Shown here in pieces: positions 50,658 to 53,108 of a stretch of DNA of 64,000 nucleotides. Numbering within the stretch: the first letter of the stretch is position 1; each line of letters begins with the position of its first letter. This stretch comes from Escherichia coli (lineage in GTDB: Bacteria; Pseudomonadota; Gammaproteobacteria; Enterobacterales; Enterobacteriaceae): NCBI RefSeq assembly GCF_030013595.1, contig NZ_CP122768.1. The stretch is one strand, 5' to 3'. The notes below the pieces were generated by a model, which was not told where the DNA came from, made no database searches, and saw only the letters and a program-made list of their open reading frames with translations. Position numbers and translations under genes: made by a program.

Positions 50658-53108
50658 ATGTTAAGGACGACACGATGGGTCGCTGCTATTATTTTTTTGT
50701 ATTCTTTTCCGGGTTATGCTGAAGAAACTTTTGATACGCACTTCATGATTGGCGGCATGAGAGGAGAAAAAGTTTCCGAATATCGTTTCGATAATAAACA
50801 ACCGCTTCCAGGAAACTACGAACTTGATTTTTATGTAAATCACCAGTGGCGTGGGAAAAAAGATATCACGATCCCAGAGTCACCAGCCAAACCATGTCTG
50901 CCTAAGGTGCTGCTAACCACACTGGGGGTAAAGACCGATAACCTCAATACAGAAGATAATTGTATTTTACTGGATGAAGCGGTTCATGGTGGACAATATC
51001 AGTGGGATATCAGTGAACACCGACTAAATTTAACAGTACCACAGGCGTATATCAATGAACTTGAAAGAGGCTACGTTCCCCCAGAAAGTTGGGATCGCGG
51101 CATTGATGCTTTTTATACCTCCTATAATTTAAGTCAGTATCGCTCTTATGACAGCAATAATAACAGTAATACAGCCAGTTATGGCCGGTTTAACAGCGGA
51201 TTAAATTTATTTAGTTGGCAGTTACACTCTGATGCCAGTTATAGCAAACCTGATGATATGAAAGGCAAATGGCAAAGTAATACTCTTTACCTGGAACGTG
51301 GCTGGTCGCAAATATTAAGCACAGTTCAGATAGGAGAAAATTACACATCTTCACTCATATTCGACTCTCTGCGATTTAGCGGAATACGCTTATTTCGCGA
51401 TATGCAAATGCTACCTGATTCTATGCAAAGCTTTACACCTTTAGTACAAGGTGTTGCGCAAAGTAACGCCTTGATAACGGTTTCGCAAAATGGCTATACC
51501 ATTTACCAAAAAGAGGTTCCCCCAGGACCATTTACTATCGCAGATTTGCAACTTTCGGGCAGCGGCTCTGATCTCGATGTCAGTATTAAGGAAGCAGATG
51601 GTAGTGTTCGTTCCTTTTTGGTGCCCTACTCTTCCGTGCCCAATATGCTGCAACCTGGTGTTTCAAATTTCGATTTTATCGCCGGACGCAGTCAGATATA
51701 TGGTGTCAAGAATCAGGAGGACTTTCTCGAGGCAAATTATATATATGGCCTCAACAATCTTTTGACACTTTATGGCGGTACGATTTTATCCGATAACTAT
51801 AATGCTATAACTCTGGGAAATGGTTGGAATACACCGCTGGGAGCAATCTCTTTTGATGCTACCCGATCGAGTAGTAAGTTAAATAATGATACCAGACACG
51901 AAGGTACGAGCTATCAGGTCGCCTATAATAAATATCTATTGCAAACGGCTACTCACTTTAGCGTGGCCGCCTGGCGTTATGCTTCGCAGGATTACAGGAC
52001 ATTCAGCGACCATCTTTACGAAAATGATAAAATAAATCATCAGAGTGACTATGACGATTTTTATGATATTGGCAGAAAAAATAGCCTTTCTGCCAATATC
52101 ATGCAACCTTTATCCAATAATCTGGGAAATGTATCATTAAGTGCGCTTTGGCGGAATTACTGGGGGCGAAGTGGAAATGCTAAAGATTACCAATTCAGTT
52201 ATTCCAATAGCTGGCAACGCATCAGTTATACTTTCTCTGCCAGCCAATCCTATGATGAAAACGACAAAGAAGAGGAGCGTTTTAATCTGTTTATCTCCAT
52301 TCCTTTCTACTGGGGGGATGATATTGCCAAAACACGTCACCAAATTAACTTATCGAATTCGACCTCATTTTCCAAAGATGGCTATTCCTCCAACAATACT
52401 GGAATTACTGGCATAGCCGGTGAACATGATCAGTTAAATTATGGTATATATGTTAATCAGCAACAATAAAATAATGATACCTCGCTTGGTACGAATTTAA
52501 GCTGGAGAACTCCCATCGCCACAATAGATGGCAGCTATAGCCATTCTAAAAACGCCTGGCAAAGTGGTGGAAGTATTAGTAGTGGATTAGTTGTCTGGCC
52601 CGGTGGTATTAATATAACTAACCAGTTATCCGATACATTTGCAATTCTGGATGCGCCTGGGTTAGAAGGCGCGCATATTAATGGACAAAAATACAACCGA
52701 ACAAACAGCAAAGGCCAGGTTGTTTACGACCTGATTATACCTCATCGTGAAAACCATCTGGTGCTTGATATAGCAAACAGTGAAAGTGAAACAGAATTGC
52801 AGGGCAATCGTCAAATTATTGCGCCTTACCGTGGAGCAGTTTCTTATGTGCAGTTTACAACTGACCAACGTAAGCCCTGGTATATACAGGCACTGCGTCC
52901 CGATGGTTCGCCATTAACCTTTGGCTATGACGTACTGGATCTCCAGGAAAACAATATTGGAGTCGTTGGCCAGGGTAGTCGCCTTTTTATTCGCGTAGAT
53001 GAAATTCCCACTGGCATAAAAGTTGCTCTCAATGATGAACAGAACTTATTCTGTACTATTACTTTTCAACACGTTATCGATGAAAACAAAACATATATAT
53101 GCCAGTAA
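50658..53108 (+). pseudogene. Fimbrial outer-membrane usher interrupted by an in-frame TAA at 52467..52469
   Basis: ORFs 50658..52469 (603 aa) and 52761..53108 (115 aa) are in the same frame (offset 2103 bp); translation through the stop is continuous for about 816 codons, usher-like length. Confidence 0.75.

Follow-up and report, generated by a model that had tools for sequence, protein, structure and literature searches.

The usher of an Escherichia coli O157:H7 pilus operon, Z0022/ECs0022, was listed as a 'Yeh-like' type of the gamma4 chaperone-usher clade (Table S2 of Wurpel et al. 2013, PMC3559732). The operon was named yhlABCD, and the receptor-binding domain of its adhesin, YhlD, stains colonic mucosa (Tamadonfar et al. 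2026, PMC12778044). Within the gamma4 clade, the Yeh usher and the Yhl usher form sister types (PMC12778044, PMC3559732). Here we describe the orthologous operon on a stretch of 64,000 nucleotides from E. coli (assembly GCF_030013595.1, contig NZ_CP122768.1), referred to as the window, in which the usher gene yhlC is interrupted by one in-frame stop codon.

Two further systems are relevant. The subunit incorporation cycle of the five-domain usher needs the C-terminal domains CTD1 and CTD2, to which the chaperone-subunit complex passes once donor-strand exchange has taken place, and chaperone-subunit complexes are discriminated by the N- and C-terminal domains of the usher (PMC3960871). A precedent for the lesion is stgC of Salmonella Typhi, an usher gene with an internal stop: deletion or expression of the stg operon nevertheless changes adherence, for which the authors proposed bypass of the stop or complementation by other ushers (PMC4494162).

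The window carries the Yeh-like (Yhl, yhlABCD) pilus operon of E. coli, which belongs to the gamma4 chaperone-usher clade. It lies between rpsT/espX1 and nhaR, and its four genes follow the order subunit, chaperone, usher, adhesin, the minimal arrangement given for yhlABCD (PMC12778044). Chromosomal site and gene order are the same as for Yhl of O157:H7, and the genes are 97.3–98.7% identical to those of O157:H7 at the nucleotide level. The lesions differ: in O157:H7 the usher is intact and yhlD is annotated as frameshifted (A8 for A7), whereas in the window the usher has a nonsense codon at position 604. We put the probability at about 93% that yhlC Q604* is a recent, lineage-restricted nonsense pseudogene, that the pilus operon is thereby almost certainly disabled and that the lineage is without Yhl pili.

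The ochre codon and the truncated usher

Read directly, the codons around the lesion are CAG CAA CAA TAA AAT AAT GAT, with TAA at 52467–52469. It is codon 604 of yhlC, counted in frame from the ATG at 50658. A translation begun at this ATG runs for 603 residues to the stop and then for another 212 to the terminal stop at 53106–53108. The whole usher frame (50658–53108, forward strand) thus comprises 816 codons and is open save for codon 604. The initial annotation had reported exactly this, a frame of about 816 codons broken only by TAA at 52467..52469 within the peptide GIYVNQQQ*NNDTSLG, and both coordinates and peptide are correct. It had also described a single nonsense change with neither a frameshift nor an insertion sequence (IS). 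The blastn alignments of the 2451 nucleotides of yhlC to five orthologous loci (including strain HCP5S3_I2 and O157:H7 FRIK2069) contained no gaps, in agreement with this description. The parts of the gene are as follows.

50658..53108, forward strand: yhlC, usher gene, 816 codons with TAA at codon 604 (Pfam usher domains)
50658..52469, forward strand: truncated yhlC open reading frame (ORF) of 603 amino acids with signal peptide, N-terminal domain, plug and most of the barrel (translation, Pfam)
52467..52469, forward strand: ochre codon TAA, codon 604 of yhlC, from CAA (Gln) via a C-to-T transition at 52467
52470..53108, forward strand: 3' part of yhlC past the TAA, left untranslated, 212 codons and stop; it would encode CTD1, CTD2 and roughly the final three strands of the barrel

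The 212 codons downstream of TAA are free of stops. The probability of this from base composition is ~1.6e-6; none of 100000 shuffles of the stretch was stop-free, and 10 and 21 stops occur when it is read in the other two frames. As the downstream codons are still open, the frame was coding until recently, and the TAA is a point mutation within a genuine gene. Gene callers place a 115-amino-acid ORF in the remnant (GTG 52761 to 53108), which matches only PapC_C and is artefactual.

With glutamine restored at position 604, Pfam finds PapC_N (24–159), Usher (176–733) and PapC_C (743–804). The actual ORF of 603 amino acids breaks off within the Usher domain and has no PapC_C, so that the three domains of a complete usher are not present on one polypeptide. 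Hence, yhlC is an usher gene by descent and does not encode a complete usher. The restored protein is homologous over its full length to structurally solved ushers. FimD chains aligned from residue 24 or 42 to 805 (E values of 1.5e-114 to 7.7e-114), and PapC matched with an E value of 2.9e-54. PapC_N, Usher and PapC_C are common to restored YhlC and the FimD/PapC ushers (3RFZ, 6E14, 3OHN, 7LHG), and the alignment to FimD runs end to end; as encoded, YhlC ends at the equivalent of FimD D615, without the end of the barrel and without both C-terminal domains.

This pairing of Q604 with FimD D615 was counted along the printed alignment. The site lies in a turn rich in Gly and Ser, after which three further strand-like segments remain before the end of the barrel. 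The FimD barrel/translocation-domain construct 3OHN aligns to yhlC residues 137–651, which places the TAA 48 residues short of the end of the aligned region; it also lies upstream of PapC_C. In total, 213 of the 816 residues are lost, which comprise roughly three strands at the end of the barrel as well as CTD1 and CTD2. A beta-barrel without its closing strands is not expected to fold into the outer membrane.

The following course of events is proposed. A recent C-to-T transition turned codon 604 from CAA (Gln) into TAA. Translation would then end after 603 residues, with a product lacking about the last three of 24 barrel beta-strands and both periplasmic C-terminal domains. Since the barrel end and the C-terminal domains are missing, the truncated usher would be unable to form a closed pore or to pass chaperone-subunit complexes from the N-terminal to the C-terminal domains; from these lost domains we infer the loss of usher function. 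YhlA, YhlB and YhlD may still be made, and they would have no cognate export platform, so Yhl pili would not be assembled. Rho-dependent polarity on yhlD is possible, with 651 nucleotides from the stop to the yhlD start, 636 of them, up to the old yhlC terminator, newly untranslated.

Distribution of the TAA allele

The allele was searched with 51 bases centred on codon 604 in 5426 complete E. coli genomes. In the alignment to O157:H7, CAA (Gln) stands opposite the TAA of the window. The CAA version of the 51-mer had an exact match in 3576 complete genomes and the TAA version in only two, HCP5S3_I2 and LCP30S3_I5; at 95–99% identity (one or two mismatches per 51 bases) the TAA version matched 3612. 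A sense codon at this site in orthologous ushers, which the initial annotation had anticipated, was thus found. Both TAA strains were isolated from pig faeces in one UK study, and over 24 kb they share 99.9% identity with the window. Among intact relatives, W13-16, a wild-boar isolate, is the closest; its yhlC is 99.7% identical, with CAA and a full usher of 816 amino acids.

The TAA allele was also present outside the complete genomes. The exact 603-amino-acid product was indexed in 88 blocks of a public assembly collection, and 24 contigs from different projects and platforms were read. They include GCA_002968075.1, which shows no difference from the window in the 7.8 kb that were compared, GCA_021649405.1 and the Logan assemblies of SRR30668461 and ERR4899789. 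TAA is therefore a derived allele fixed in one lineage, which is pig-associated in the two complete-genome examples. An in-frame stop where the orthologs have a sense codon, in a gene that is otherwise collinear with them, is the pattern of a nonsense pseudogene. The pseudogene status is already known, as RefSeq (Prokaryotic Genome Annotation Pipeline, PGAP) labels the usher of both TAA strains as a pseudogene with 'internal stop'.

Further lesions occur in the chaperone gene of the TAA lineage. The A7 tract of yhlB (50397–50403 in the window) is A6, a frameshift, in both complete TAA genomes and in the Logan assembly of SRR30668461; the latter contig was grouped at look-up with 12 further similar contigs, which were not shown individually. 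GCA_021649405.1 has a separate 1-bp deletion in yhlB (C at 50638). The yhlB lesions may have followed the loss of the usher as secondary decay or, in some assemblies, may be homopolymer sequencing errors. The rest of the operon may thus have begun to decay in the TAA lineage; the pattern is what relaxed selection after the loss of the usher would produce, with small numbers.

For annotation, yhlC of the window is to be labelled as a pseudogene (internal stop), and the ORFs of 603 and 115 amino acids are not to be treated as proteins. The lineage most likely lacks Yhl pili, whose adhesin binds colonic mucosa (PMC12778044).

Alternatives to the proposed loss of Yhl pili

Three points weigh against the reading of yhlC Q604* as the end of pilus assembly. 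First, yhlA, yhlB and yhlD are still intact in the window, which is equally expected if the mutation is very young. Second, the suppressor search described below covers the sister genomes and three classical classes of ochre-suppressor tRNA, not the window's own genome. Third, by analogy with stgC, a stop in an usher gene alone does not prove a null phenotype. Like yhl, stg is an A-B-C-D chaperone-usher operon in which one stop breaks the usher ORF and the other genes are intact (PMC4494162). The two cases differ in that deletion and heterologous-expression phenotypes suggest residual function of stg, and in that sub-lineages of the yhl TAA allele show further decay of the chaperone gene. On this analogy, there is a slim chance that the TAA lineage still makes Yhl fibres, via low-level bypass of UAA-A or via a Yeh or other usher that exports YhlB-bound YhlA/YhlD. 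If so, E. coli would have in yhl a parallel to the stg operon with its interrupted stgC, and a tractable model for the unexplained residual function of stg.

The best-surviving alternative is complementation in trans, in which another usher, e.g. the paralogous gamma4 Yeh usher, replaces YhlC and YhlA/YhlD fibres are still exported. The sister relationship of the Yeh and Yhl ushers (PMC12778044, PMC3559732), the same proposal for stgC (PMC4494162) and the intact yhlA, yhlB and yhlD of the window speak for it. However, ushers select chaperone-subunit complexes by their N- and C-terminal domains (PMC3960871), and no case of Yeh/Yhl cross-assembly was found in the literature examined. Moreover, a yhlB frameshift is found in the majority of the TAA-lineage members sampled, as 13 of the 24 contigs read were grouped at look-up with the one A6 contig whose sequence was seen, which is unexpected if the remaining genes are in use. 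We regard complementation as improbable, and it seems to be the only escape left with any precedent, namely stgC.

Decoding of the TAA, by an ochre-suppressor tRNA, context-dependent readthrough or hopping, could also yield enough full-length usher for pilus assembly. The frame is the same on either side of the TAA and the 212 downstream codons are undamaged, as decoding would require, and ribosome bypass has been proposed, though not shown, for S. Typhi stgC (PMC4494162). The initial annotation had left room for such suppression. ARAGORN found no tRNA genes in the window. The complete genomes were then queried with tRNA-Tyr, tRNA-Gln(UUG) and tRNA-Lys, each given a UUA anticodon; these query sequences were validated by annotated tRNA genes exactly one mismatch away from each. 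No UUA-anticodon allele of the three classes was present in any of the 5426 genomes, both TAA sister strains included, and no record reached ≥99% identity; the best matches of all three queries were annotated wild-type tRNA genes differing by one anticodon base. HCP5S3_I2 and LCP30S3_I5 are thus without a classical ochre suppressor. Programmed recoding is implausible, given the lack of conservation of the stop, which only 2 of the ~3600 complete genomes with the segment carry. The yhlB frameshifts in sub-lineages, in turn, are expected if the operon is no longer selected. Both release factors recognise UAA, and of the stop codons it shows the least basal readthrough in E. coli, which also weighs against decoding. 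Overall, it is very unlikely that the usher is rescued in this way.

A sequencing or assembly error, with CAA and an intact usher in the true genome, has still less in its favour. Errors can produce single-base changes of this kind. Substitution errors do not recur identically between independent assemblies, however, and the same TAA was found in two complete genomes and the 603-amino-acid product across independent NCBI and Logan assemblies, so that we give this explanation hardly any credence.

Finally, the initial annotation had allowed for an usher that naturally ends at codon 604 with a separate downstream gene. The 115-amino-acid PapC_C ORF (52761–53108), which automatic callers do report past the stop, would then resemble the lpfC/lpfC' annotation in O157:H7, where the usher of the lpf1 operon lpfABCC'DE appears, going by the operon name, to be given as two consecutive ORFs; lpf1 is a different operon from yhl, of the gamma* clade and at a different locus. 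This two-gene usher can be dismissed: the ortholog was a single ORF of 816 amino acids in every intact example examined, the split is limited to one lineage, and the 97 codons that separate the TAA from GTG 52761, barrel strands among them, would be missing. GTG 52761 is the first canonical in-frame start past the TAA, has no Shine-Dalgarno sequence and would give a product of 115 amino acids (VLDIANSESE...) with no signal peptide; such a product would be unable to enter the periplasm, and the lost strands would still be absent.

The nonsense pseudogene is, hence, preferred over these alternatives. The initial annotation had judged the fimbrial operon probably non-functional, and this judgement is supported by the ortholog codon, the independent assemblies, the suppressor search and the domain loss, from which the loss of function would follow.

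Operon map, decay across E. coli and neighbouring features

The gene order of the window is ileS-ribF-yaaY-rpsT-espX1, the four fimbrial genes, nhaR and nhaA, and it matches the RefSeq-annotated orthologous loci. Apart from yhlC, the genes of the operon and its flanks are as follows.

47656..49077, forward strand: espX1, type III effector gene, 473 amino acids, upstream flank fixing the locus (RefSeq annotation of orthologous loci)
49379..49912, forward strand: yhlA, major fimbrial subunit, 177 amino acids, intact (Pfam Fimbrial)
49962..50645, forward strand: yhlB, periplasmic chaperone, 227 amino acids, intact in the window (Pfam PapD_N/C)
53121..54080, forward strand: yhlD, tip adhesin, 319 amino acids, intact in the window (named after the yhlA-D scheme of PMC12778044)
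54118..55017, reverse strand: nhaR, downstream flank fixing the locus (RefSeq annotation of orthologous loci)

All three of yhlA, yhlB and yhlD are full-length and uninterrupted, as had been claimed for the subunit, chaperone and adhesin genes. The yhlA gene is 100% identical at the nucleotide level to the WP_000759929.1-encoding genes at three loci, including that of HCP5S3_I2. The orthology of the adhesin rests on 97.3% nucleotide identity to yhlD of O157:H7; the 319 amino acids had no match at E ≤ 0.001 in a PDB copy that apparently lacks the YhlD structure 8V9V. The operon is AT-rich, with a G+C content of 39.4% compared with 50.1% for the window. A literature search under the name 'loc1' yielded nothing on this locus. 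In every genome examined, including those with 5'-deleted operons, espX1 lies directly upstream of the pilus operon.

Loss of parts of the operon is widespread. For about 2400 of the ~3600 complete genomes that keep the 3' part of the usher gene, the match extends over no more than 49% of the operon query. In one such genome that was examined, NDM_12_14482 (3033–5336, corresponding to 51777–54080 of the window), a deletion has removed yhlA, yhlB and codons 1–373 of yhlC, and a 1332-nucleotide usher remnant and a full-length, uninterrupted yhlD are retained. The yhlD of this genome is thus an orphan adhesin gene without a cognate chaperone or usher. K-12 retains only about the last 160 bases. 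Ten full-length operons were sampled down the match ranking, and five of the ten carry a pseudogene.

Intact operon: W13-16, FDAARGOS_1290, KK19-02, M21170, LR-62-2
Usher stop and chaperone frameshift: HCP5S3_I2
Adhesin internal stop: 184/2aE
Adhesin frameshift: two O157:H7 strains, FRIK2069 and 86-24
Chaperone internal stop: 23CRST027

The TAA allele of yhlC is, accordingly, an ordinary, lineage-specific loss of a gene from an operon prone to decay. The yhl locus is a small, clean example of the erosion of an accessory chaperone-usher operon by 5' deletion, nonsense codons and homopolymer frameshifts, in different genes depending on the lineage.

Two observations concern published data on yhlD. 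The A7 tract of yhlD (53412–53418 in the window) is A8 in O157:H7 FRIK2069 and 86-24, with a frameshift at about codon 99, and RefSeq labels these genes 'frameshifted'. This sits oddly with the 'Sakai YhlD' of which the 190 residues at the N-terminus were cloned for crystallography (structure 8V9V; PMC12778044). The gene yhlD was reported in only ~13% of genomes, almost exclusively of phylogroup E (PMC12778044), whereas the 3' segment of yhlC adjoining yhlD was found at ≥95% nucleotide identity in at least 3614 of the 5426 complete genomes; the criteria of the two figures differ.

Beyond nhaR, the window contains two further features. An accessory island on the reverse strand (56501–60149) lies between nhaA and mokC. 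It encodes a 426-amino-acid protein with an 'IS1/IS1595 N-terminal zinc-binding domain', a sulfatase-family protein (57875–59404) and an OmpK-like outer-membrane protein (59388–60149). The island is absent from O157:H7 FRIK2069, where mokC comes directly after nhaA. A repeated element was suspected from two ORFs of 426 amino acids (56501–57781 and 60952–62232), and this was rejected, as the two are unrelated (6.6% amino acid identity). The second of them is an IS4-family transposase ORF (60952–62232, reverse strand) between mokC and dnaJ, annotated as an IS421-family element in LR-62-2. Its insertion site is presumably the one held by IS186 in K-12. HCP5S3_I2 and LCP30S3_I5 match 94% of positions 40000–64000 in two pieces and probably lack this element.
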